Shown: positions 446-13,901, counted from the first letter of the stretch. The stretch is 63,205 bases of DNA from a candidate division NPL-UPA2 bacterium Unc8 (GCA_003574845.1 NDHY01000001.1:135043-198247), one strand, 5' to 3'. Numbers and translations: made by a program. Notes: generated by a model from the letters alone, not told the origin.

Positions 446-1551
446 AGCGTTCATGGTTTTTGTGGGACGTAGCATACCTGGCGATTTTGGGCTTGCTTAT
501 GGTTCTTTTTATCCTCGGCGCTGTTGCAGTACTCCGATGGGAAGGGCAGCAGCAAATGGCAATTATAGGCGGAATATTCTTCGTCCTGGGATACTTAAGC
601 CACCCCTACCTCTCCCGATCGATTTGGAGCCCGCTGGCAAAACTAATGCGGGAGAGCCGGGGAAGAGACAATAGTCAGCGCGCGCTACCGCAGGAGCTAA
701 TAGAGGATTTACGCCTCTCCCGGCTGGAGGTGAAGCGCTGGTCAGAAGAGTTAGAAAAAAGAGTAGAAGAGAGAACAAGAAAGATAATTGCTCTCCGGAG
801 GAAATTGATTCACTTTGAGAAGATGGCCTCATTGGGTGGGATGGCAGCAGGGGTAGCACACGAGATAAGAAACCCTCTTGGAATTATCGGCATTGCTGCC
901 GGGTACCTGAATAGTTCAATAAGCGCTAACAATGACTCCCTGAGTAAGAGTGAGGTGGCAGTCTTAAGAGAACAGGTTGCAATCATTGAAGAGGAGGTTG
1001 AAAGAATGAGAAGAACCACCGACAACCTTCTCTCCTTCTCCCGATTTTCTCTGGAAGGAGTGCCAGAACCAATTCACATCAACGATGTAATAGATGAGTC
1101 CATTGCTTATCTGCAGGATACTACTCTGCAAGGGATAGAGTTGCTCCGGGACCTTGACCGCACTCTTCCTCCAGTAAGGATTGACCGGGACCAGTTACGT
1201 CAGGTGTTTTTAAACATTATCCAGAATGCTTCCCAGGCAATGTTAGATGGAGGGACAATAGAAATCCACTCTAAGAGGGGAGAGAAGCGCTCAATGGTTG
1301 AGGTCTCCTTTCGAGACACTGGCTGCGGAATCCCTTCAGGGGACCTGAAAAGAATATTTGACCCGTTTTGGACGACGAAGAGCGCCGGGAGGAAAGGGTT
1401 CGGCCTGGGACTGGCAATTTCGCACAACATTATCCGCAAGAACAGAGGAGATATCAGTGTAAAGAGTGTCCTCGGGGAGGGAACAACCTTTACAATCAAG
1501 CTCCCGATAACGGAAAATGGTAAAGAAAGGCACAAAGGCACAAAGTTATGA
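442..1551 (+). CDS. Membrane sensor histidine kinase (NtrB/PilS-like)
   Basis: Two TM segments; H-box AHEIRNPL; N-box [23 protein letters not shown] and GLGLAIS motifs. Confidence 0.92.
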
Positions 1552-1561
1552 TAAAATAAAG

Positions 1562-1687
1562 GTAAGTATTCAGTGAACACGTTATTCTTGGTAGCCGCAG
1601 GCTTCAGCCTGCGCCGAAGTAACGCAACCTAAAGGTTGCGGCTACCTTCAAACCTGCTTTTATACCACGTCTTTACTGAATATTTAC
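1562..1687. mobile_element. MITE (126 bp) with 21-bp imperfect TIRs and 8-bp target duplication
   Basis: TIRs GTAAGTATTCAGTGAACACGT vs GTAAATATTCAGTAAAGACGT (18/21); AAATAAAG at 1554-1561 and 1688-1695. Confidence 0.75.
1591..1645. repeat. REP doublet (REPIN-like), copy 1
   Basis: GTAG + hairpin cgcaggc-ttca-gcctgcg, then inverted unit cgcaacc-taaa-ggttgcg + gCTAC; near-identical copy at 31654-31749. Confidence 0.8.
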
Positions 1688-1738
1688 AAATAAAGACACA
1701 GACACCTTAAAAACTAAGTCAATAAAGGAATTAATGAT

Positions 1739-3262
1739 ATGTTGAGAGGTTCGGTTGGACTGGACATTGGTGCCAATGCAATAAAAATAGTAGAACTTAG
1801 GAAAGTCGGCGAAAAGGTTCAACTGATAAAGGCAGGGATGGTAGGGATTCCCGACGATTCATCCAGGCAAAAAGACATTCTCTCCAATCTTCTAAGAGAC
1901 TTCAAGGGAAGAGGGAAAGCATTCTCAGTCGCTGTCCCCGGGCAATCTGCCTATATCCGCTATGTAGACCTCCCTCCGCTGGATACTTCTCGCCTTGAGC
2001 AGATGATGGGGTATGAGGCCAAGCAACAGATCCCCGTTCCTTTAGAAGAGGTCCTCTGGGATTATCAGCGCCTGCCTGCAAGAGACCCGTCCAAAACAAG
2101 CATCGTTCTTGTAGCTGCAAAATCGGAGGCAATAGAGAGGCTCCTGGACAATATTGGGAGATTCGGCATTGAACCCTATGCCATTGATTATAGCCCTCTT
2201 GCATCATATAATGCCTTGAAGTTTTCCGGCAGCATAAGTAGCGAAACATCCATTCTTATTGACCTCGGGGCAGAATCAACAAATCTCAGTATTGAGACAA
2301 GAAACTCTCTTTGCTGGACGCGAAGTATCCCGGTTGGCGGGATGTCTCTTACGCGGTCTATAGAAAAGTCTCTCGGAGTAACCCTTATTGAGGCAGAGAG
2401 ATTAAAAAAGGAGGAAGGCGGTGCCCCGGGAAGCGCAGGCAGGGACAGGGTAGTAGAGGCGATGGCTCCATCGCTCAGGCGTCTGGCAGATGAGATCCAG
2501 CGGTCGTTGACGTTTTTCCAGGCAGAGTTAGGTGGTGAAGCGGTCAATAGAGTGATCCTTAGTGGAGGAGGTGTTCATATCAAGGGCATTTCTCAGTTCC
2601 TTAAAGAGGAGCTCGGGGTTAGCGTAGAGACAGCGTCCCCATTGGCGGCACTTTATTCTCCCCTCCCCATTATCTCCCGCGACCAGGAGGCCTTCTTTCA
2701 CGTAGCCATTGGATTGGCACTTCGACCTCTCCTTAAATGCCCTGTTGAGGTAAACCTTCTTCCCCCAAGCATCTTAAAAAAGAAAGAGTTCCGGGCAAAA
2801 AAAGCAGCTCTTGTTATATCACTCATTCTTGCCTTTCTTTCTGCAATCACTTTCCGTGAATTTTTCGCGCAGGATTACAGGATGATAAGAAGCCGCATAG
2901 AAGTGATTGAGGCTGGATTAGCCGAATACAGAAGACATGAGCCGGAAATGAAAATAGCAGCCAAAGAAAAAGAGGACACGCGAGAGCAAGTAGAGGAACT
3001 GGCAAGATTGGCGGCAGAAAGAGTATTCTTGCCCAATCTCCTCCTTGAGCTAACCACGATGCTCCCCGAGGAAATACACCTGAGGAGCTTCTCTTTGGGC
3101 GAGGAAGCAATCAATATTGAGGGAGTTGCTCCACGGCTTCCCCTGATCACAGATTTTGAAACAAGGATTAAGGCATCCCCGCTATTTGGAGCAGTTACCA
3201 CTGAACTGGCCGGCAAGCCGGGGGCACACGAGTTCAGTTTCACAATAAACATAAATGAGTAG
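1739..3262 (+). CDS. pilM: Type IV pilus assembly protein PilM fused to a PilN-like domain
   Basis: VGLDIG actin-like motif, EAKQQIP, LIDLGA, VILSGGG; then VNLLP, a TM segment, coiled coil and PilN-like C-terminus. Confidence 0.88.
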   Translation: MLRGSVGLDIGANAIKIVELRKVGEKVQLIKAGMVGIPDDSSRQKDILSNLLRDFKGRGKAFSVAVPGQSAYIRYVDLPPLDTSRLEQMMGYEAKQQIPVPLEEVLWDYQRLPARDPSKTSIVLVAAKSEAIERLLDNIGRFGIEPYAIDYSPLASYNALKFSGSISSETSILIDLGAESTNLSIETRNSLCWTRSIPVGGMSLTRSIEKSLGVTLIEAERLKKEEGGAPGSAGRDRVVEAMAPSLRRLADEIQRSLTFFQAELGGEAVNRVILSGGGVHIKGISQFLKEELGVSVETASPLAALYSPLPIISRDQEAFFHVAIGLALRPLLKCPVEVNLLPPSILKKKEFRAKKAALVISLILAFLSAITFREFFAQDYRMIRSRIEVIEAGLAEYRRHEPEMKIAAKEKEDTREQVEELARLAAERVFLPNLLLELTTMLPEEIHLRSFSLGEEAINIEGVAPRLPLITDFETRIKASPLFGAVTTELAGKPGAHEFSFTININE

Positions 3263-3342
3263 GAATTGACATAAAAGATGAAAAATGACATAATAAACAT
3301 AAATGAGTAGGAATTGACATAAAAGATGAAAATTGACATAAT
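3244..3342. repeat. 48-bp tandem duplication across the pilM stop / next start
   Basis: aataaacataaatgagtaggaattgacataaaagatgaaaa(a/t)tgacat at 3244 and 3292. Confidence 0.95.
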
Positions 3343-4126
3343 CGAACGCTGGACGAAGTTCCTGCCTATTATAAGCATATTTGGACTCTTTATTGTGGCT
3401 GGTTGCCTGTATTTTTGGGCAGCCCTGCCGATTATCAATAAAATTGACGGGGCAAATCTGGAACTGAAAGAGAAAAAGGCAGAAATGGAGAGATTTCTCC
3501 TCAACCCGCCTTCCCGAGAGAGGATAGCGGAACTCCATAAGGGAAAAGAAATGTTTGCAACCCAATACATGGAAATGGTAAAGAAAATGGGCTTTCCCCG
3601 CCCGGACCCATTATTAAACTTTCCCCTCCATTTTGATGGCATGGAGATGGAGTCCCTGCTCAGGTTTTTTGGCACCAGGATACTTCACGATTACTTTGAG
3701 AAAGAATTAGAGGCAAGCGAAATAAGGCTTCGCCACCTGGGGGCGGGGCGCGGCTTAACCATCCCCCAAAGGTTAGGTTTTGAAGAAGAGAAGCCGAAAA
3801 CCCCGGCAGAGCTTGCTCTGCTTCTTGCCGGAGTGACGATGACAGAGAAACTCCTCGTCACTGCCATTAAAGCAGAAGTGGAAGAAGTCTCCTCAATAGA
3901 GGCGCCGGCGCCTCCCTACAAAGCAATTGCGCCGGAGTTTAAGAAGCTAAGCGCCGAACTTACTCTAAAGACAAGCGCCCTGGCTCTCATTGAGCTTCTT
4001 GACCGGTTGGCAACCGGTGAATATCCCTTCATCATTGAAGACATAGCGGTTGACACTGCCCCTCCGCACCTTAAAGTGAAGCTTCGTGTCTCGACCCGGG
4101 TCCTTCTTGAAGAGGAGAAAATGTGA
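3326..4126 (+). CDS. PilO-like / Amuc_1100-like pilus assembly protein
   Basis: N-terminal TM, coiled coil, C-terminal PilO-like region (ELLDRLATGEYPFIIEDIAV); follows pilMN. Confidence 0.6.
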   Translation: MKIDIIERWTKFLPIISIFGLFIVAGCLYFWAALPIINKIDGANLELKEKKAEMERFLLNPPSRERIAELHKGKEMFATQYMEMVKKMGFPRPDPLLNFPLHFDGMEMESLLRFFGTRILHDYFEKELEASEIRLRHLGAGRGLTIPQRLGFEEEKPKTPAELALLLAGVTMTEKLLVTAIKAEVEEVSSIEAPAPPYKAIAPEFKKLSAELTLKTSALALIELLDRLATGEYPFIIEDIAVDTAPPHLKVKLRVSTRVLLEEEKM

Positions 4127-4677
4127 TAAAAGAGCGCTTAAAAAAAATTATAAAGATAATTGGTAACAATCCGGAAAAAGTTATTCTGTGGTTTTTTATC
4201 CTTATTCTTGTGGCTATGAGCTCATACCTCGTAATAAAGTGGCGCGCAAAAGAGGCTCCGGATGATGTGGCGCCGGTAGTAAGAAGACCATTGGAAGCTC
4301 CGGTGTTAGTAGATTTTGGCGGGCTCATAAAGAGAGAGGGTTATTATCGCGAGAGGTTTCCGAGGGACCCATTCTCTCATCAGCCGCTGGTGCCGGACCC
4401 GGTAGAGGACCCGGTAGAGGACCCGGCGCTGGTGCCGGACCCGGTAGAGGACCCGGCAGAGGATCCCATTATAAGAAAGCCACGGCCACGGTTAACAAGA
4501 ATGATGACTATTGGAGGGAGAAGAGTAGCATTCATTAGAATTGGGAGGGAAACTCATCAGGTAACCGGAGGGGAGAGTATTAATGGATGGAAGGTTCTCA
4601 ATATTAGAGAGGATGGTGCCACCCTCTACAACGAAAAAAGGGGACAAAGGCTTACTTTATTCATTAAAATTCATTAA
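4123..4677 (+). CDS. PilP/GspC-like membrane protein with Pro/acidic linker
   Basis: TM, RDPF motif, PDPVEDP repeats, C-terminal beta domain (VTGGESINGWKVLNI). Confidence 0.55.
   Translation: MIKERLKKIIKIIGNNPEKVILWFFILILVAMSSYLVIKWRAKEAPDDVAPVVRRPLEAPVLVDFGGLIKREGYYRERFPRDPFSHQPLVPDPVEDPVEDPALVPDPVEDPAEDPIIRKPRPRLTRMMTIGGRRVAFIRIGRETHQVTGGESINGWKVLNIREDGATLYNEKRGQRLTLFIKIH
4385..4467 (+). repeat. Coding 12-bp/42-bp tandem repeats (DPVE)
   Basis: gacccggtagag units; cgctggtgccggac at 4385 and 4427. Confidence 0.85.
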
Positions 4678-4700
4678 AATTCATAAACAAAAAATAAAAC

Positions 4701-4729
4701 TTGAAAATACTTAAAAGCTGTTGTATAAT
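4701..4729 (+). promoter_or_regulatory. Sigma70-type promoter for the secretin genes
   Basis: TTGAAA-17 bp-TATAAT, 18 bp upstream of ATG 4748. Confidence 0.65.
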
Positions 4730-4747
4730 GAGGTCGGTGAGAGAAAC

Positions 4748-6448
4748 ATGGAAAGAATAAAGAAAATATGGGTAGTAGCAGCCTTGCTCCTGGTGAGCAG
4801 CAGCATCTCCGCCCATTCCCGGGTGGAGATGATAGACCTCAAAGTAGAGAGAGTAGGAGACGATGTGGTGATAACCATTGAGACCGCCGCACCGGTGGAT
4901 TACAGGTCATTCACCCTGAGAAACCCCCCCAGAACAGTAGTAGATATCACTGGGGTTGCTTTTAAGAGGGCGCCCCTGAGTTTAGAGGTTGAGGGAATAG
5001 CGACTGTCAGTGCCACGCAATACAGGCCCGATATTGTCCGCGTAGTTGCTGACCTTGCGCGACCAATGGAGGCAAAGGTCTCCCGGAGAAGAAATAAGAT
5101 ATTCCTTCGCCTGAGGGTAGGAAAAGAACTGATAGCAGAAAAAAGAGCGGTAGAGTCGGCCATTGAAGCGGTAAGGAAAGATGCCGGGTTGAGAGCGCGC
5201 GAGGCTGCACGAGAAAGAGAGAAAGCCGCAAGAATTACCGACAGAGAGGCGATGAGAAGATTAGGGGAGATAAGAAGGCTTCTTGATGAAGGAAAGATAT
5301 ATCTTGAAAAGGGTAAATTTACAGAAGCAGCTGAAAAATTTGAAGAGGTTCTTTTCCTGGACCCGGGCAATAGAGTGGCGCTGGTTTACTTTGCCCGGGC
5401 AAGTGATGAAGCCGCTATCAGCGAACACCTCCTCAGGGCTCAGCGGCACTTTAACGAAGGCCGCTTTCATGACGCCATTACTGAATTGGAAAAAATACTT
5501 GAACTCTCCCCGAGGCACCGGTCCGCAGAGGACTTAATTTTTACGGCTCAAAAAGCGCTTCTGGACAGAGAGGTAGAGATAGCGAAGATTGAAACGGGGC
5601 TGGTAAGGAGGGAAATGATGGCGGCGGTAGAGAGGGCCGCTCAACCAATGATTGATTATTTTGCCGCTCCACCCCCCCGAAGAGTTATCGGAGAGCTGCC
5701 CGAGGAGGTTTATAGACACCGAGCACAGCTCCTTGGAAGAGAGGTCTCGGAGTTCACCTTTAAGGGTACACCAATCAGAGATGTTCTCTCATTCCTCTCC
5801 GAAGCAAGCGGGGTGACCATCGTCCTTGATGAGAGAGAGATCTGGGCGCTTCACAGAGTAACCGCTCTTACTGTTAACCCGATGCCGCTCTCCTCTGCCC
5901 TGAGCATTCTTCTCAGGCCAAGGGGGTGGGGATATGCCGTAAAGGAGCACTATATCTGGGTCAGCACCAAGGAGCGCCTGGCATTGGGGGGCGGAGGAAA
6001 TCCCCACGGAGGGCATGGTGGAGGAAGGACAAGAAGAGACATAGACAGGGTAATATTACAGGAGTTTGAGTTTATCGGTGTCGACCTGCGAGAGATTCTT
6101 TCTTTTCTTGCCAGAGAAAGTGGGATAAGCATTGTAATGGATAATGAATTATTAGAGGAAGTGACAAAAAAGGTTGTAGTAGGAGAAGAGCTCATAGATG
6201 GAGAAATAACGGAGATTACAGAGGAAATGACTGTAATGAAGGCTCCCGCAGTAACGGTTTCCACGGTCAACCCCATGCCGCTTTCTGCTGCCCTAAGTGT
6301 TATCCTCAGGCCCGGCGGGATGGGTTATACAGCAGAGGAGCACTATATCTGGGTCAGCACTGAAGAGAAAATAGCAGCAGGCGAGGAGGGGAGGAGAGTC
6401 ACAAGATTTTTCCAGCTCCGTCACCCCGTCCACAGAGAGAAGAGGTAG
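4748..6448 (+). CDS. Secretin N-terminal module only (signal peptide, AMIN, TPR, two STN/N0-like domains; no secretin core)
   Basis: AMIN-like FTLRNPPRTVVDI; TPRs; duplicated FKGTPIRDVLSFLSEASGVTIV / FIGVDLREILSFLARESGISIV; ends TRFFQLRH. Confidence 0.75.
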   Translation: MERIKKIWVVAALLLVSSSISAHSRVEMIDLKVERVGDDVVITIETAAPVDYRSFTLRNPPRTVVDITGVAFKRAPLSLEVEGIATVSATQYRPDIVRVVADLARPMEAKVSRRRNKIFLRLRVGKELIAEKRAVESAIEAVRKDAGLRAREAAREREKAARITDREAMRRLGEIRRLLDEGKIYLEKGKFTEAAEKFEEVLFLDPGNRVALVYFARASDEAAISEHLLRAQRHFNEGRFHDAITELEKILELSPRHRSAEDLIFTAQKALLDREVEIAKIETGLVRREMMAAVERAAQPMIDYFAAPPPRRVIGELPEEVYRHRAQLLGREVSEFTFKGTPIRDVLSFLSEASGVTIVLDEREIWALHRVTALTVNPMPLSSALSILLRPRGWGYAVKEHYIWVSTKERLALGGGGNPHGGHGGGRTRRDIDRVILQEFEFIGVDLREILSFLARESGISIVMDNELLEEVTKKVVVGEELIDGEITEITEEMTVMKAPAVTVSTVNPMPLSAALSVILRPGGMGYTAEEHYIWVSTEEKIAAGEEGRRVTRFFQLRHPVHREKR

Positions 6449-6453
6449 AATAA

Positions 6454-7470
6454 ATGGCAAGAGCAAGGTGTTTTTTCTTCTTAATTTTATTTTTGATTGG
6501 GCTCCAGACTCTTTCCTTTGCCAGAGAGCCCGATATTATTCCGCAGTTAAGAGAGGACTTCCCGGGGGCAATCATCTCCTTTGACCCGGCGACAAACACC
6601 ATAGTTGTCACCGCCACCCCCGAGGAGCAGCAAAAAATCGGGGAGATGCTTGAAGTGCTGGATACCCCCCCTCCCCAGATTGCCATTGAGGCAAGGTTCA
6701 TTGAGTTTATTGTTACCGATACAGGTGAGTTGGGCGGCGAACTTCGGCTCCCTGACCTTGAGGTAGGAGAGATAGCCGCAGATGCAACCGTGGATATCGT
6801 TGTCAACTGGGCATTGGGCGTAACGCCTTTTCCGGTGGATGCCGCCGCAGGTATCATCAGGCTGCTCCGGGACCCCCCGAGAGTGACCCCGGCAGTAACC
6901 AAAGCCATCATACGAGCCCTGGCAAAAGAAGGAAGAGTAGAGGTCATCTCTGCCCCACGGGTGGTGACCTTAAGCGGACATACAGCCGAAATTAAACTTG
7001 AAACGAAGGTTCCTTATCTCACTGAGGTAAGGTTTGTTGAGGGGGTGCCAGAGTTTCCACCTCCAGCAGAAAAAGAAGCGGGAATCTTCTTAGAGGTAAC
7101 CCCTGCTGCCATTGAAGGAGGTGCCCTCATTACAATGGAGATTAAGCCGACCGTTAAGTTCCTGGTGAGGAGAGTGCCGGGAGTGCCGGGAGTTCCAAGA
7201 GACTTTGCCCACCCCATTATTGATGAGCGCACTACTCAGACTCATGCAGTAATTGAATCGGGAGAGACAATTATCTTGGGAGGGTTAATCGGGAGGGAAG
7301 AGAGGATGGTGGACAGGAAGCTTCCCATCCTCGGGGATATCCCCGTTTTAGGACAACTTTTCTTCAGGCACAGGTATCACCTTGATGAAAAAAGAAAGCT
7401 TCTTATTTTCCTCACCGCCCATCTCGTTGACCCCTGGGGTGAGATTATTGTCGCAAGGAGGGAGAATTGA
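6454..7470 (+). CDS. Short secretin core paralog 1 (partial N3 + secretin domain)
   Basis: Signal peptide; DPATNTIVVTATPEE, PQIAIEARFIE, ISAPRVVTLSG, LGGLI, KLPILGDIPVLGQLF. Confidence 0.88.
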   Translation: MARARCFFFLILFLIGLQTLSFAREPDIIPQLREDFPGAIISFDPATNTIVVTATPEEQQKIGEMLEVLDTPPPQIAIEARFIEFIVTDTGELGGELRLPDLEVGEIAADATVDIVVNWALGVTPFPVDAAAGIIRLLRDPPRVTPAVTKAIIRALAKEGRVEVISAPRVVTLSGHTAEIKLETKVPYLTEVRFVEGVPEFPPPAEKEAGIFLEVTPAAIEGGALITMEIKPTVKFLVRRVPGVPGVPRDFAHPIIDERTTQTHAVIESGETIILGGLIGREERMVDRKLPILGDIPVLGQLFFRHRYHLDEKRKLLIFLTAHLVDPWGEIIVARREN

Positions 7471-8444
7471 AAGGTGTAGGAGCAATATTATTGGTGGCAC
7501 TCTTCCTCGTCTGGTCCACTCCTGTCCGGGGAGAAAATATTGTTACCATATTAGAGGAGCGATTTCCTGAGATAAAAGTCAGGCTGGACCCTGTTCACGG
7601 CATCCTTACCATTGACGCCACCCCCGAAGAGCATGAGGAGATCAGGAAAATTCTTAGAAAATTAGATATCCCTACTCCTCAGATCAGTATTGAAACAAAA
7701 TTCCTTGAGCTCACCGTTACCGAGCTTGGTGAGGTGATGGTTGACCTGGACGCATTAGGAATAACGATTGAAGGAGAACCTGTTCAGCTTGAGATACCCT
7801 GGGACCCGAGGTATCCAGAGACAGCCATCACCTTCTTCGGAAGGAAGGGCGACCCCAGGGCGCTGACGGCAGTGCTGCGAGCACTTGAAGAAGAAGGTGA
7901 GGTAGAGGTCATCTCTGCCCCACGGGTGACCACCCTTAATAACCGGGAAGCAACCATTGACATTATGGTATCGGTCCCCTATGTCGGTGAGATTACGCGT
8001 GAGAACATAGGAACAGTAGAAGCGCCAGTCTGGGTGGTAACTTACCATATTGAGGAGGAGGAGGCGGGTGTCCTTCTCAGGGTAACTCCTTCGGTTACCC
8101 CGGGGGGGACGCGGATTACCCTGCACCTTGAACCCACAGTCAGAATAGTAGAGGAAAGGCTGTCTCTCTTTGGTGTAGGCGCTGAGCTTGACTGGCCGAT
8201 TATGGCTGAGCGGACAGTCACCACCCAGATGGTGGTTGAGTCTGGAGGGACAGTTGTTCTTGGCGGGATGATTGATAGCAGAAAAACGGCGGAGAAGGGA
8301 AGAATCCCGCTCCTTGGAGACATTCCTATTTTAGGGCATCTTTTCAGGTTCCAGCACTATAGAGATGAAAAAAAAATGCTCCTTATTTTCCTCACACCCC
8401 ATATTCTCTCCCCTGCCGGCGAGAAAATTGTGGCTGCGCGGTAG
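7467..8444 (+). CDS. Short secretin core paralog 2 (partial N3 + secretin domain)
   Basis: Signal peptide; PQISIETKFLE, ISAPRVTTLNN, LGGMI, RIPLLGDIPILGHLF. Confidence 0.88.
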   Translation: MKGVGAILLVALFLVWSTPVRGENIVTILEERFPEIKVRLDPVHGILTIDATPEEHEEIRKILRKLDIPTPQISIETKFLELTVTELGEVMVDLDALGITIEGEPVQLEIPWDPRYPETAITFFGRKGDPRALTAVLRALEEEGEVEVISAPRVTTLNNREATIDIMVSVPYVGEITRENIGTVEAPVWVVTYHIEEEEAGVLLRVTPSVTPGGTRITLHLEPTVRIVEERLSLFGVGAELDWPIMAERTVTTQMVVESGGTVVLGGMIDSRKTAEKGRIPLLGDIPILGHLFRFQHYRDEKKMLLIFLTPHILSPAGEKIVAAR

Positions 8445-8470
8445 TTGGCTAATCCATCAAAAAAAATAAA

Positions 8471-8560
8471 ATGCCATCAGGAAGAAAGAAAAAAAAGACA
8501 AAAATGGCCAAGCACAAGCGCAAAAAGAGACTGCGCCGCGACCGGCACAAGAAAAAATGA
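8471..8560 (+). CDS. Small basic AURKAIP1/COX24-domain (bS22/mS38-like) protein, not in ORF track
   Basis: MPSGRKKKKTKMAKHKRKKRLRRDRHKKK*; stop overlaps the bamD start (ATGA). Confidence 0.8.
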   Translation: MPSGRKKKKTKMAKHKRKKRLRRDRHKKK

Positions 8561-9525
8561 GTACAACGATATTAAAAAATCTCCCACTGATCGCTTTTCT
8601 TTTATTTAATGCGCCAGCAGGCATCAGCTTCGTCTCGCACATAGACCACTTTGAAAGCGGAAGGGAATATTTTTATCAGGGAAAAACAAAAGAGGCAAGG
8701 ATAGAGTTCAGGAAGTCTGAACGGCTTAATCCACGTCTTGACGAAATAGATAAGCAGCTCGCCGCTGAAGTTATCAGATATCTAAAAGAAATTAAAGAGA
8801 AAGAAAGGCATGCCGCCAGCTCAAGATACACAGCGGCGAGAGACCATGAGGCAAAAGGCAACTTCATTGCAGCAGGTAGAGCGTATCGGGAGCTAATTGA
8901 GCAGTACCCTGGCAGCAAGGAGGTGACCTCGGCGCTGGATGGTCTCTACCGGGTTGCCACAGGTATCCTCAAGGACGAAGACAGACCGCGGCTTTTTGCA
9001 GAGAGTAATTATTCCCGGGCAAGAAGGCTTTTTCAGTTTTTATCAGAAAGGCTCCCTTTTGGTGAAAAGGCAGCCCGGGTTCAATACAAGATAGGGTTGT
9101 CTTATTTTTATGACGATGACTTCCCTAAAGCAGCGCTACACTATAAGAGAGTCATTGAAAATTATCCACAAAGCCCGTACGCAGAAAAAGCCCTCTTCGG
9201 GATTGCAATGGCTTATTTAAATCAATCTACTGCTCCGCCCCGTGACCAGACAATGACTAGGCGCGCCCGGGAGAAGCTCAGGAACTTCCAACAGCTTTTC
9301 CCTGATAGCCCTCTGCAGAAAGATGCCGAAGAAAAATTATTTTCTTTAAATGAGCAATTAGCCGAGCACCTCTACAGAATTGGAACATTCTATAAGAGGC
9401 AGGGTGAACTTGCCGCTGCCAAAATCTACTACGAGAGCATTTTAAATGACTACTCGGAAACCAGCTGGGCGGCTCCGGGGAGGGACCGATTAAATGAGCT
9501 CACGACAAAAGCTGCTGTGCGCTAA
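8557..9525 (+). CDS. bamD: Outer membrane protein assembly factor BamD (TPR)
   Basis: TPRs; YPQSPYAEKA, PPRDQTMT, LAEHLYRIGTFY; bamD-lptE-holA order. Confidence 0.8.
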   Translation: MSTTILKNLPLIAFLLFNAPAGISFVSHIDHFESGREYFYQGKTKEARIEFRKSERLNPRLDEIDKQLAAEVIRYLKEIKEKERHAASSRYTAARDHEAKGNFIAAGRAYRELIEQYPGSKEVTSALDGLYRVATGILKDEDRPRLFAESNYSRARRLFQFLSERLPFGEKAARVQYKIGLSYFYDDDFPKAALHYKRVIENYPQSPYAEKALFGIAMAYLNQSTAPPRDQTMTRRAREKLRNFQQLFPDSPLQKDAEEKLFSLNEQLAEHLYRIGTFYKRQGELAAAKIYYESILNDYSETSWAAPGRDRLNELTTKAAVR

Positions 9526-9949
9526 TCTCGCAGCGCTCCTTCTCTTGGGAGGGTGTTATACGCCCTCTCCCCCCGATGTGGCAGAATTCAGGTCTATTGC
9601 CATTAATATTGAAAATAAAACATTTGAGGGTGGCATTGAAGTTCAGATAAAGAAAAAAATAAGAGATGAATTTATATTTGACGGAAGACTAAGCGTTGCG
9701 AGGGGCGAAAACGGCGCAGACCTCAGGCTATGTGGTCAAATTACAAGTTATGTTGAGGGCAAGAGGGTTGGAGAGCCCTATGTGACCATCGGAGGTATCT
9801 TCACCGTTAGAGACCTGCGGAACAACAGGGTTTTATGGGAAAACAAGATAATTAAGGGAAGCTCCGTCGCTCCAACCAATCGTGAGGCAAAAAGGGGGGC
9901 GCTCACTAACCTGGCAAGGAGCGTTGTTAAGGAGACGCTGGGGGGGTGA
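9494..9949 (+). CDS. lptE: LptE-family lipoprotein
   Basis: Lipobox LLLGGC-Y; IENKTFE, ADLRLCGQI; directly upstream of holA. Confidence 0.7.
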   Translation: MSSRQKLLCANLAALLLLGGCYTPSPPDVAEFRSIAINIENKTFEGGIEVQIKKKIRDEFIFDGRLSVARGENGADLRLCGQITSYVEGKRVGEPYVTIGGIFTVRDLRNNRVLWENKIIKGSSVAPTNREAKRGALTNLARSVVKETLGG

Positions 9950-11201: not shown

Positions 11202-12311
11202 TTATGGTCTTATTGGCATAATCACATAGGTGTATTTTTCATCTCCATCCGGCTTCATTACCCCTGAATCCAGTGGGCCGTTTAAATCCAGGAACACATC
11301 AGCGCTTTCCTCGTTTTTTAAAAAATCCATTATATATCTTGGTTCAAAAATAATATTAATTAACGGGACATCAGGACATGGTTCTTTATGTTTTAAATCC
11401 ACCTCCTCTTTCACCTCTCCGATACCAGGAATATTTGCTTTTAATATTATTTTATCTGCCAATACATCAAACCCCACCGCAGCTGATTCTTCACTTGTTA
11501 GAACAGCGACCCTCTTTAGATTATCAAAAAACTCTTTATTTTTCAATCTCACTCTCCTTTTAAAATCAGGTGGGATGGCTTTTTGGTAATCAGGAAACTG
11601 TTTATTAATGAGCCGGGATACCAACCTGTCTTTATTTTTTATTTGAAAGGATATTTCGTTTTCTCCAAAGGAAACCTCAACCTCTCCTTTATCTAAAATC
11701 TTTGAAAGTTTATTAATTGTTTTAATGGGAATAATAATCTCTTTTTTACCCCGACAGGAATTCTTTATTGTGCTTTCAATACAAGCCATTCTTCTTCCAT
11801 CCGTAGCTATTAATCTTAAAATATCCTCAACTACCACAAAAAGAACGCCACTAAGTGCAGGACGAGCATCATCATAAGAGACAGCAAAGGATGTCTTTTT
11901 TATCATTCTTTTTAAGTCTGTTTGCTTAATTGAAAAAGTATTGCTTTTTTCTATTTGTGGTAGTTCAGGAAAGTCCTCTACCCCCGATCCGTTAATCCTG
12001 AAAAAACCTTTTTTATAATTAATAATAAAGGTATTATTTTCTGTATTTATGTTTATTTCAACATCAGGTAATGATTTAACTGCTTCACTGATTTTGTGGG
12101 CTGGAACTGTGATTTTACCCTGTTCTATTACCTGGGCAGGAATATAACACTCCATTCCTACTTCCAGGTTAGTAGTTATCATATGTAGAGAGTTCTCGCT
12201 TGTTTCAATAAGTAGATTAGATAGAATTGGTAATGTATTACTTATTAAGATAATATCATCTACCATATTTATTCCTTTAACTAAATCCTTTTTTAAACAA
12301 TTCACTTTCAT
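11202..12311 (-). CDS. dnaN: DNA polymerase III beta clamp
   Basis: LPILSNLLI, ATDGRRMA, SRLINKQFPDY, YVIMPIR. Confidence 0.97.
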   Translation of the reverse strand: MKVNCLKKDLVKGINMVDDIILISNTLPILSNLLIETSENSLHMITTNLEVGMECYIPAQVIEQGKITVPAHKISEAVKSLPDVEININTENNTFIINYKKGFFRINGSGVEDFPELPQIEKSNTFSIKQTDLKRMIKKTSFAVSYDDARPALSGVLFVVVEDILRLIATDGRRMACIESTIKNSCRGKKEIIIPIKTINKLSKILDKGEVEVSFGENEISFQIKNKDRLVSRLINKQFPDYQKAIPPDFKRRVRLKNKEFFDNLKRVAVLTSEESAAVGFDVLADKIILKANIPGIGEVKEEVDLKHKEPCPDVPLINIIFEPRYIMDFLKNEESADVFLDLNGPLDSGVMKPDGDEKYTYVIMPIRP

Positions 12312-12348
12312 GGTATTCCTATTACTCCTTCTCTTCTAATATAAGTTA

Positions 12349-12458
12349 CAGTAGTAGTAACTGTAATGACTATTTTTAATAGAAAACCGAGTTTTTAATT
12401 ACATACCAAAGAGATAACCTGTTAATTTAATATTAATAACCCAATAAGTTTATCCACA
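12349..12458. promoter_or_regulatory. Probable oriC unwinding region (DnaA-trio-like run, AT-rich tract, DnaA box)
   Basis: CAG TAG TAG TAA at 12349-12360; perfect TTATCCACA at 12450-12458 in the dnaA-dnaN spacer. Confidence 0.6.
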
Positions 12459-12463
12459 AAAAA

Positions 12464-13762
12464 TCAATTTTCTATTTTTTTTCTTATTCGTTCAATATTA
12501 TGCTTCATTATCGTGTTGTTTTTTATTTCCTCTTTTATTTTTTTACATGCATGAATAACTGTTGTGTGATCTCTGTGCCCGAAACTATCTCCTATTTCGG
12601 GAAAGGAATAATCTGTTAAATCCCTTATTAAAAACATTGCTATCTGCCGCGGGAAAACAACCTCTTTATTCTTTTTTTTATCTTGCAGGTCAGAGGTTTT
12701 TAGTCCATAAAATTCAGCTACGCTTTCTTTAACAAGCTCCATTGTTATTTTATTTTTAAATAAAATATCTCCCAGGACATCTTCTGTTAGTTTTAAATTT
12801 ATCGTTGTTTTAGTTAATGCAGCATGGGCAAAAACCCTGGTTAACGCTCCTTCAAGCCGCCTTATATTTGATTTAATCTGGCTTGCGATAAAAACAATCG
12901 CTTCATTGGGGAAAGGCACACCCTTCTCATCTATTAATTTTTTAAGGATGGCAATTCGCACCTCCAGCGTTGGTTGTTGAATATCAACAACCAATCCCCA
13001 CTCAAACCGCGAGAGTAATCGCTCATGAAGCGTTGGAATCTCTTTTGGGTGACGATCACTGGAGAAAACAATTTGCTTATAACTATCATGTAATGTATTA
13101 AAGGTATGAAAAATCTCTTCCTGGGCAGACTCTTTCCCAATAAGAAAATGAACATCATCAAGCAAGAAAGCATCTGTGTTACGATATTTATCTCTAAAAT
13201 CTTGCATTGTACGATTTTGTATTGCCCTGACAAATTGATTAAAAAAAGCCTCTGTTGACATATATGAGATCCTGACACCATTTTTTTTCTCTCTTATAAA
13301 ATGGCCAATTGCCTGCATAAGATGTGTTTTCCCCAATCCTGCACCACCATAAATAAATAATGGGTTATATGCTCGTGATGGGGACTCGGCAACGGCAAGA
13401 GAGGCAGCATGGGCAAGGTGGTTGCTTTCCCCAACAATGAAATTATCAAAGATATATCTTTTATTAAGGCGGGGCTGTGATGATGGGTGTTCTGCGAGCG
13501 GTGGGTGATTTTTATAACAAGAAGTAGTGATTAGGAAATTCAGGAGAACCTCCTTTTTATTAATATCTAATAATGCTTCCTTGATTAAATCAAGGTAGTG
13601 TTCTTTAATCCAGTTACAAAAAAATCTACTGGGGACACCCAATGAAAGCGTATTATCAGAGAAAGAGATAAACTTTATCTGTTTAAACCAGCTGTTGAAG
13701 ATGCGAGAGTCTACTTTTTTAGTGATTATACTTAATGTTTGTTCCCAGGGATTCAATGTCAA
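12464..13762 (-). CDS. dnaA: Chromosomal replication initiator DnaA (start uncertain: TTG 13762 or 13756)
   Basis: YNPLFIYGGAGLGKTHL, LLDDVHF, SRFEWGL, RDHTTVIHA. Confidence 0.97.
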   Translation of the reverse strand: MTLNPWEQTLSIITKKVDSRIFNSWFKQIKFISFSDNTLSLGVPSRFFCNWIKEHYLDLIKEALLDINKKEVLLNFLITTSCYKNHPPLAEHPSSQPRLNKRYIFDNFIVGESNHLAHAASLAVAESPSRAYNPLFIYGGAGLGKTHLMQAIGHFIREKKNGVRISYMSTEAFFNQFVRAIQNRTMQDFRDKYRNTDAFLLDDVHFLIGKESAQEEIFHTFNTLHDSYKQIVFSSDRHPKEIPTLHERLLSRFEWGLVVDIQQPTLEVRIAILKKLIDEKGVPFPNEAIVFIASQIKSNIRRLEGALTRVFAHAALTKTTINLKLTEDVLGDILFKNKITMELVKESVAEFYGLKTSDLQDKKKNKEVVFPRQIAMFLIRDLTDYSFPEIGDSFGHRDHTTVIHACKKIKEEIKNNTIMKHNIERIRKKIEN

Positions 13763-13776
13763 CACCCTTCCTTTGT

Positions 13777-13901
13777 TTTTCCACAACCTATCCACAGGTT
13801 ATAGTATCTTTACCATACACAGATAGTTGTGGTGTAAAATAGAGACTAATAATAAATCCTTGTTATTAATAGCATAAGAACCCATCTTGCATTTATCCAC
13901 A
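13777..13901. promoter_or_regulatory. DnaA box cluster upstream of dnaA
   Basis: TTTTCCACA 13777, CTATCCACA 13788, TTATCCACA 13893. Confidence 0.7.

Follow-up and report, generated by a model that had tools for sequence, protein, structure and literature searches.

A probable type IV pilus-like secretin divided among three genes in candidate division NPL-UPA2 bacterium Unc8

Three abutting genes and their surroundings

Secretins are usually single chains. In candidate division NPL-UPA2 bacterium Unc8 (GCA_003574845.1; genome of 1.0 Mb in 24 contigs, 94.7% complete), three abutting plus-strand genes, each in a different frame, appear to divide one secretin between them. They lie in a stretch of 63,205 nucleotides (NDHY01000001.1:135043-198247), here called the window, from whose first letter all positions are counted (Table 1). 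The first gene encodes a protein that we call the N-module; the second and third encode cores A and B, two short secretins. A sequence-only reading of the locus had proposed that the secretin chain is cut inside an N3-type domain, and collinearity with fused relatives, AlphaFold2 models and structural alignments all point to the same place. With a probability of roughly 0.6, we take the three genes to encode a type IV pilus-like secretin of the Amuc_1098-1102 type known from Akkermansia and the PVC (Planctomycetes-Verrucomicrobia-Chlamydiae) group, split into three secreted chains and completed by strand complementation in trans.

For the N-module gene, of which a single copy was found in the genome, ATG 4748 is the best start: the alternative TTG at 4721 overlaps a -10-like hexamer. 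Pfam mapping, alignment and blastp agreed with the earlier description of its product as an AMIN, TPR and double-N0 protein that lacks a secretin domain; no Pfam Secretin match was found in it. The Pfam STN match (residues 369-408, E 5e-4) scored 20.3 bits, below its cut-off of 28.4. A Gly/His-rich linker, GGGGNPHGGHGGG (5984-6031), connects the two N0 domains, the second of which carries an acidic insert. This duplication occurs only in the window's own family, and the presence of two N0 copies alongside two cores may not be a coincidence. Near the C-terminus lies the strand motif V-T-[RK]-x-[YF]-x-L-x-[YHF], which was present in 29 of 29 N-modules with its Leu invariant, and which resembles the first strand of whole N domains from the same genomes (LGTRTFFLEFA in the genome's other secretin, and LQTKTYFLNFA). 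The protein had been thought to stop at FFQLRH; it continues beyond these residues, and its C-terminus is ...RRVTRFFQLRHPVHREKR / ...GRRVTRFFQLRHPVHREKR.

Cores A and B are 41% identical. Both score far above the Pfam Secretin (PF00263) cut-off of 27.5 bits, at 121.9 and 143.9 bits respectively, which places them in the secretin superfamily. Their divergence is greatest just past the N domain, where identity falls to 20-32% in 40-column windows. All three proteins begin with one to three Lys or Arg residues followed by a hydrophobic 12-mer with a mean Kyte-Doolittle value of 2.5-3.2, and are thus signal-peptide-like by hydropathy; the Pfam matches, hydropathy and pairwise identity uphold the proposal of two paralogous short secretins with their own export signals. 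Five nucleotides separate the N-module stop from the core A ATG, the two cores overlap by 4 nucleotides (TTGA), and a ribosome-binding-like purine run lies ahead of each core. Against the PilQ model TIGR02515, core A, core B and the N-module scored 133.9, 146.6 and 22.3 bits, all under the cut-off of 284.35; a single piece comprises just a part of that model. The whole genome yielded only three secretin domains: those of cores A and B, and one in a frame of about 443-444 residues that is ended by the edge of a 1.6-kb contig and comprises N0/STN, a complete Secretin_N and a secretin domain.

Abutting open reading frames (ORFs), each in a different frame, could also arise from an assembly or sequencing error, or from the decay of a one-chain secretin gene. 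Independent contigs speak against such an origin. A DNA contig from run X1 spans 6331-7803, and two contigs from the RNA library of run X3 span 4620-6848 and 6850-7789, all without gaps; together they bridge both gene junctions, crossing the regions of 6440-6460 and 7460-7475, and the frames stay unfused. In a second strain from a second study (X4/X5; contig 4606-7820, 95-99% alike), the three frames are retained: one extra G after 6438 rewrites only the last residues of the N-module and shifts its stop to a point directly ahead of the core A ATG. The signal-peptide-like start and purine run of each core, taken earlier as an argument against a frameshift, and the persistence of the layout in two phyla despite deep sequence divergence point the same way. 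We therefore rejected the artefact and pseudogene explanations, which we hold to be extremely improbable; the three-gene layout is real and probably a functional design. Coverage of all three genes in the RNA library is compatible with expression but falls short of proof, since DNA can occur in such libraries.

The trio sits between a block of pilMN-, PilO- and PilP-like genes and a bamD-like gene. The pilM-pilN fusion scored 179 bits against NCBIfam pilM (TIGR01175; cut-off 133), and matched Amuc_1101_fam with an E-value of 2.4e-76 at 258 bits, below that family's cut-off of 650. The two proteins that follow gave zero matches in Pfam or NCBIfam scans, and are putatively assigned as PilO-like and PilP-like by their operon position and a by-eye reading. 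Three ATPase genes of the T2SSE family (PF00437) precede the window by 2-6 kb on its contig; by length, we read their open frames of 575, 361 and 522 residues as PilB-, PilT- and PilB-type. The pilMN fusion, the PilO- and PilP-like genes and these ATPases place the trio in a type IV pilus machine context. Amuc_1100 and Amuc_1099, which presumably follow Amuc_1101 at the places corresponding to our PilO- and PilP-like genes, would gain a reading for Akkermansia from the appearance of these two proteins.

A promoter had been proposed in the 70-nucleotide gap before the N-module. The pattern is there, with 11 of 12 positions matching, but it is not distinctive: 15 sites of this type occur in 1500-9800, about twice the 7.6 +/- 3.1 found in shuffled sequence, so that it stands as a pattern match only. 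Further downstream, dnaN and dnaA (11202-13795, minus strand) have 31-37% G+C, compared with 44-50% in the surrounding 10 kb. This stretch may be the origin region, although the genes themselves are AT-rich.

Table 1. Features of the secretin locus, in window coordinates (pLDDT, predicted local distance difference test score)
Feature	Position	Strand	Basis
pilM-pilN fusion, 507 residues, first gene of the alignment-complex/secretin block	1739..3262	+	Pfam PilM_2 E 1e-41, PilN E 4e-7
PilO-like protein (putative), 266 residues; N-terminal membrane helix, then coiled region	3326..4126	+	operon position, by-eye reading
PilP-like protein (putative), 184 residues; membrane helix, Pro/Asp-rich linker, small C-terminal beta domain	4123..4677	+	operon position, by-eye reading
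Sigma-70-like promoter pattern TTGAAA-17-TATAAT, 11/12	4701..4729	+	pattern only
N-module, 566 residues; signal-peptide-like start, AMIN, TPR, two N0 copies, C-terminal strand, no secretin domain	4748..6448	+	
AMIN domain, residues 31-109	4838..5074	+	Pfam PF11741, E 4.3e-11
TPR repeats, about residues 180-261	5285..5530	+	Pfam TPR_2 E 1.5e-10, TPR_14, TPR_16
First N0/STN-like domain, about residues 331-412	5738..5983	+	weak Pfam STN; alignment to N0 of fused relatives
Second N0-like domain, about residues 429-545	6032..6382	+	alignment; blastp to fused S1 residues 309-405, E 5e-11
C-terminal strand VTRFFQLRH, residues 551-559, putative detached first strand of the Secretin_N domain	6398..6424	+	
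Secretin core A, 338 residues	6454..7470	+	Pfam Secretin 155-326, E 2.7e-35; AlphaFold2 pLDDT 79
Truncated N domain of core A; helix 28-35, strands 40-44 and 49-53, helix 56-69	6535..6660	+	10-residue blocks 31-90, pLDDT 83-96
Secretin core B, 325 residues, paralogue of A	7467..8444	+	Pfam Secretin 139-314, E 4.7e-42
bamD-like gene, downstream of the secretin genes	8557-9525		

Conservation of the layout and its fused relatives

Our sample of the window's phylum comprised 13 species genomes, four of which (G000, G001, G002 and G011) had the three-gene layout. The trio follows pilMN-O-P in G001 (same genus, on two contigs), in G002 (same order) and in G011 (another family), and a single core was present in G006 on a 2.3-kb contig. 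In G008 and G010, the same place is occupied by two tandem one-chain secretins of 744-792 residues that combine TPR, STN and secretin domains; in each pair, only the first member gave a Secretin_N match. G012 carries one whole secretin with the end of another before it. These tandem full-length TPR-N0-secretin genes, at L016 5869-10436 (G010), L017 6440-11082 (G008) and L021 1-2600 (G012), overlap by 4 nucleotides, and they extend the rule of two pore genes to the unsplit form: two pore genes are retained wherever the system was seen, split or fused. With this query, the system was not found in G003, G004, G005, G007 or G009 (58-90% complete). Other secretin types occur in G003 and G007; in the latter, of a sister family, a pilMN operon (L019 3701-8636) ends in a 702-residue Big_2 protein and a 900-residue secretin whose TPR repeats are C-terminal instead of N-terminal.

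A pattern scan with the N-module alignment extended the search to other phyla and returned 26 loci. One was the contig of G001 itself; the other 25 were labelled Omnitrophota/Omnitrophica (15) or uncultured Planctomycetia (10). The order N-module, core 1, core 2 was found at 23 of the 26, the remaining three stopping at contig edges, and so the layout that had been described at a single locus recurs in these metagenome-assembled genomes (MAGs) as it does in the four genomes of the phylum. The N-modules at these loci are 218-378 residues long, the shortest being truncated by a contig end, and they end at the strand motif. In 17 of the 23 loci from other MAGs, the core 1 stop and the core 2 start overlap by 4 nucleotides.

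Protein searches gave a similar picture. We classified the best 150 matches of an N0-plus-tail profile among 1.84 billion protein representatives: 31 were secretin-less and ended no more than 40 residues from the tail match (a few being apparently unrelated), 15 had a secretin core, and 104 were other proteins, mostly with multiple N0 domains. The profile also matches proteins of 1381-1677 residues with four to eight tandem N0-like repeats and no secretin domain (P0135, P0136, P0142, P0149 and others). The eight near-length relatives with more than 40% identity to core A (P0004-P0011) are all 326-362 residues long, and among proteins of 593-2000 residues none was more than 40% identical to it. 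The trio consists of real genes that are conserved, passed on as a block and collinear with their fused relatives.

In a 19-row tree rooted on other secretins, the split cores formed one clade (100/99), sister to a clade of the fused S1 and S2 forms (95/91). At the 23 loci from other MAGs, the core 2 sequences came together in one group with a support of 93, those of core 1 made up the remainder, and the internal branching of the two sets matched; the N-module tree agreed with the core tree when L025 and L044 were left out. Inside the window's phylum, each lineage's A and B pair with one another, and not by core position. Forcing all first cores together was rejected (lnL difference 210, p-AU 2e-7; the test drew on 13 of the 23 loci, with the group defined only once the tree was known). 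The pairing of A and B within lineages implies repeated duplication or gene conversion. The paralogues are more alike in the N domain than elsewhere in G002 (82-89% identity against 63% overall) and, to a mild degree, in some Omnitrophota pairs; in the window they are not (42-45% against 41%). Third-codon-position identity gives a weak hint, from small counts, of conversion between the cores, which in G002 would span the N domain and in the window the first halves of the genes.

A paired listing of strands and N domains (60 rows) separates split from fused forms. Outside the window's family, the strand of split forms shows K-L-K-[YF], and the third strand of their N domain has an Asp (TDTP in Omnitrophota rows; in G011, QDTP and RDTP), whereas fused forms lack those lysines and have NT in place of DT (for example RNTP). 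This pattern is suggestive of a gained salt bridge, judged from very few independent events.

Position of the cut

Laid on the fused proteins, the N-modules align up to residue 401-420 or thereabouts, and the cores from about 410-464 to the end. In the fused forms, N0 is followed by a strand (LVTKIYIL; METRYYHL in others), usually a second short strand, and then a variable acidic or low-complexity linker of about 15 to 50 residues by eye, after which come a helix, two strands, a helix and the secretin domain. The S2 paralogues have no linker, and their helix directly follows the strand. Both cores start with a helix a few residues past the signal peptide, core B having the same helix-first N domain as core A. 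The Pfam Secretin_N profile reflects this missing beginning: its match starts at profile position 6-14 in seven of seven split cores, as against 1-2 in five of five whole secretins of the same genomes. In core A, the match covers residues 20-75 and profile positions 6-69 only; in core B, it covers residues 22-72 and positions 11-69, at 24.1 bits, under the cut-off.

AlphaFold2 modelling of core A from a 70-sequence alignment (pLDDT 79, predicted template modelling score 0.69) gave a signal helix at 2-17, coil at 18-27, helix 28-35, strands 40-44 and 49-53, helix 56-69 and then the barrel, with no first strand. The complete strand-helix-strand-strand-helix Secretin_N (PF03958) is thus absent from the modelled core A chain, as the sequence-only reading had supposed. 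The model is otherwise a secretin: Foldseek matched it to GspD, PilQ, InvG and pIV at E-values of 7e-15 to 1e-10, and VIA-align superposed it on solved secretins with Z scores of 10-11.7 over 200-230 residues, at root-mean-square deviations of 5.3-6.9. A model of the fused S1 protein of G010 (residues 300-778; pLDDT 77) contained N0, a strand at 97-102 (VTKIYI; pLDDT about 80) to which the N-module tail strand is homologous, a loop at 108-143 with pLDDT below 50, helix 147-154, strands 162-166 and 171-176, and helix 178-192. Its alignments to solved N0 domains reached Z scores of 9-11.

Structural alignment of the two models to solved secretins supports the same boundary. In the fused model, N0-only matches end at residue 87-95, and matches to an N domain plus secretin begin at 96-98. 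For ten of ten solved GspD, PilQ and pIV chains (7ofh, 6ve2, 6ve4, 5zdh, 9k8v, 5wq9, 5wq7, 5w68, 6i1y and 6i1x), the alignment starts 8-14 chain residues later for core A than for the fused model, at chain residue 123 rather than 109 in 7ofh_A, 11 rather than 1 in 6ve2_A and 257 rather than 244 in 5wq7_A; the core A alignments begin at its residue 23-27. These ranges give first and last aligned residues only. The starts of the structural alignments therefore identify the strand as the first N-domain element of the fused protein and show it to be absent from core A. Together, the models support a cut inside the last Secretin_N (N1/N3-type) domain, in a disordered loop predicted to lie right after strand 1.

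The same evidence bears on whether the cores need the N-module at all. They could be autonomous minimal secretins, with the N-module a separate periplasmic adaptor or pilotin-like helper that uses its TPR repeats and binds pore, PilP or peptidoglycan through other surfaces; the conserved tail strand would then serve the N-module's own fold, for example by packing on N0. Short secretins for which Pfam reports the Secretin domain alone (359-420 residues, P0013-P0017) are common in other phyla, and the TPR part is like a region termed pilotin-like in Akkermansia (PMC4960237). There is also one N-module gene for two cores. We nevertheless consider both parts of this account, the self-sufficient cores and the inward-packing strand, unlikely: in the fused model, the boundary between N0 and N-domain matches assigns the strand to the N domain, core A is modelled with an incomplete, two-stranded N domain, and the strand motif is the best-conserved part of the tail (29 of 29).

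Several observations count against strand complementation. A profile alignment of the fused family to solved PilQ sets the first N-domain strand of the latter opposite the linker and not opposite TKxYxL. The low-complexity linker misleads this alignment; the register is ambiguous at the sequence level, and strand 1 is assigned from the models and from the S2 forms. For the strand at 97-102 of the fused model, DSSP names no pairing partner. The post-strand segment GVRKIRxVxLxEF of Omnitrophota N-modules has shrunk to PVHREKR in the window's lineage, where residues beyond the first strand are dispensable because the tail is short and is frameshifted in the strain variant. With a single N-module gene, half of the N domains would be incomplete, or the N-module would be made in double amount. 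Finally, the short secretins P0013-P0017 suggest that a pore half may work without a front half.

Assembly of the three chains and comparison with known secretins

Under strand complementation, the N-module would provide the reach to the cell wall and to the inner-membrane platform through its AMIN, TPR and N0 domains, with N0 as the likely PilP docking site, and its chain would end with beta strand 1 of the last N domain of the ring-building kind. Past its signal peptide, each core would supply the remaining helix-strand-strand-helix of this domain and then the secretin domain that forms the pore. In the periplasm, the C-terminal strand of the N-module would insert beside the two-stranded sheet of the core's N domain and rebuild the normal strand-helix-strand-strand-helix fold. 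The result would be an AMIN/TPR/N0 arm placed under the pore as in one-chain relatives, with a non-covalent tether. Strand donation in trans is well motivated by the models; the docking itself, its stoichiometry (one N-module gene and two core genes) and any sharing of a ring by A and B are what we infer from it.

How the two cores relate to one another in the assembled pore can be weighed only partly from the present data. One possibility, somewhat doubtful on balance, is that A and B never mix, and instead form separate homo-oligomeric rings that serve different ends (for example, pilus extrusion on the one hand and uptake or secretion on the other) and use a common N-module. All matched solved secretins are homo-oligomeric according to their entry titles, A and B have diverged considerably and differ most after the N domain, and cores 1 and 2 persist as distinct groups across the lineages of the 23 loci. 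The 4-nucleotide core overlap, in the window and in 17 of 23 loci, fits equimolar production of partners in one complex, and the pair is kept in split and fused forms alike; neither point is decisive. A still more tentative possibility is an obligate hetero-oligomer, in which A and B would alternate in the ring and the N-module would be clipped on below by its donated strand. If true, it would be the first secretin ring of non-identical subunits combined with a domain reassembled in trans, and a non-covalent joint, not the chain, would set how many periplasmic arms there are and how they are spaced (one or two N0 for each A/B pair).

A close architectural counterpart is the one-chain Amuc_1098 type (NF042912) of PVC-type type IV pilus clusters. 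The operons agree in type: the PilM-like gene matches Amuc_1101_fam, and Amuc_1098_fam is matched by both the N-module and the cores; once N-module and core are laid on the fused relatives, the order of TPR, N0, N domain and secretin is shared. The window differs in that the chain is cut after N-domain strand 1 and the pore half is duplicated, and it adds AMIN and a second N0. Scores against NF042912 (N-module 30.7, A 96 and B 83.8 bits; cut-off 750), together with the division into three chains, indicate a likeness in architecture and operon type and not equivalog membership. PilQ of Akkermansia muciniphila is described as a 907-residue protein located in the outer membrane (PMC4960237).

Although single-chain secretins are the rule, as the sequence-only reading had assumed, the rule has a precedent for exception in the type III secretion system (T3SS) of the rhizobial type: rhcC1/nolW and rhcC2, with hrcIIC1 and hrcIIC2 in the Pseudomonas syringae T3SS-2. 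In the passages seen of these sources, the split is kept through the whole lineage, as it is here, and the authors call its functional meaning unknown (PMC3574062, PMC3973906). That system is a type III system and not a pilus, the rhc genes are often distant and differently regulated, and the same passages describe no duplicated pore half, although some strains have a third fragment that is similar to part of rhcC1. The window proteins are not of the RhcC1/RhcC2 type: they scored 78-99 bits against TIGR02516 (SctC; cut-off 238), and their neighbours are pilus genes. Our search of PubMed Central Creative Commons papers and bioRxiv found no split or heteromeric pilus secretin, and only the rhizobial T3SS split.

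The three-gene form of Omnitrophota, for which we found no name in print, shares with the window a TPR-N0 protein that ends in the strand motif and is followed by two short cores, which in the window are tandem and helix-first. The window belongs to another, small phylum, and its N-module is 566 residues long compared with about 365-378, with AMIN, a duplicated N0 and a shorter tail; its cores pair with each other and not with Omnitrophota core 1 or core 2. To this form the window adds a second phylum, an N-module with AMIN and a double N0, fused tandem relatives within the phylum and a structural argument for the position of the cut. One-chain PilQ and GspD (6ve2, 6w6m, 5wq8, 5zdh and others) share the secretin fold and an N0 in the front half, and differ in being single polypeptides with a complete N domain that form homo-oligomers of 12-15 subunits by their entry titles.

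Such systems are easily missed or called broken, because the N-module has no secretin domain and the cores fall under the PilQ and GspD equivalog cut-offs. The locus represents a natural secretin cut inside a ring-building domain, with two diverged pore halves, kept in at least two phyla of small-genome groundwater bacteria. Every solved secretin that we matched is a ring of one kind of chain, and the split form stands in contrast to these. It offers a test case for three questions: the need for a covalent link between the pore and the periplasmic N0/TPR arms, the feasibility of mixed secretin rings, and the way in which pore and inner-membrane platform are matched in symmetry.

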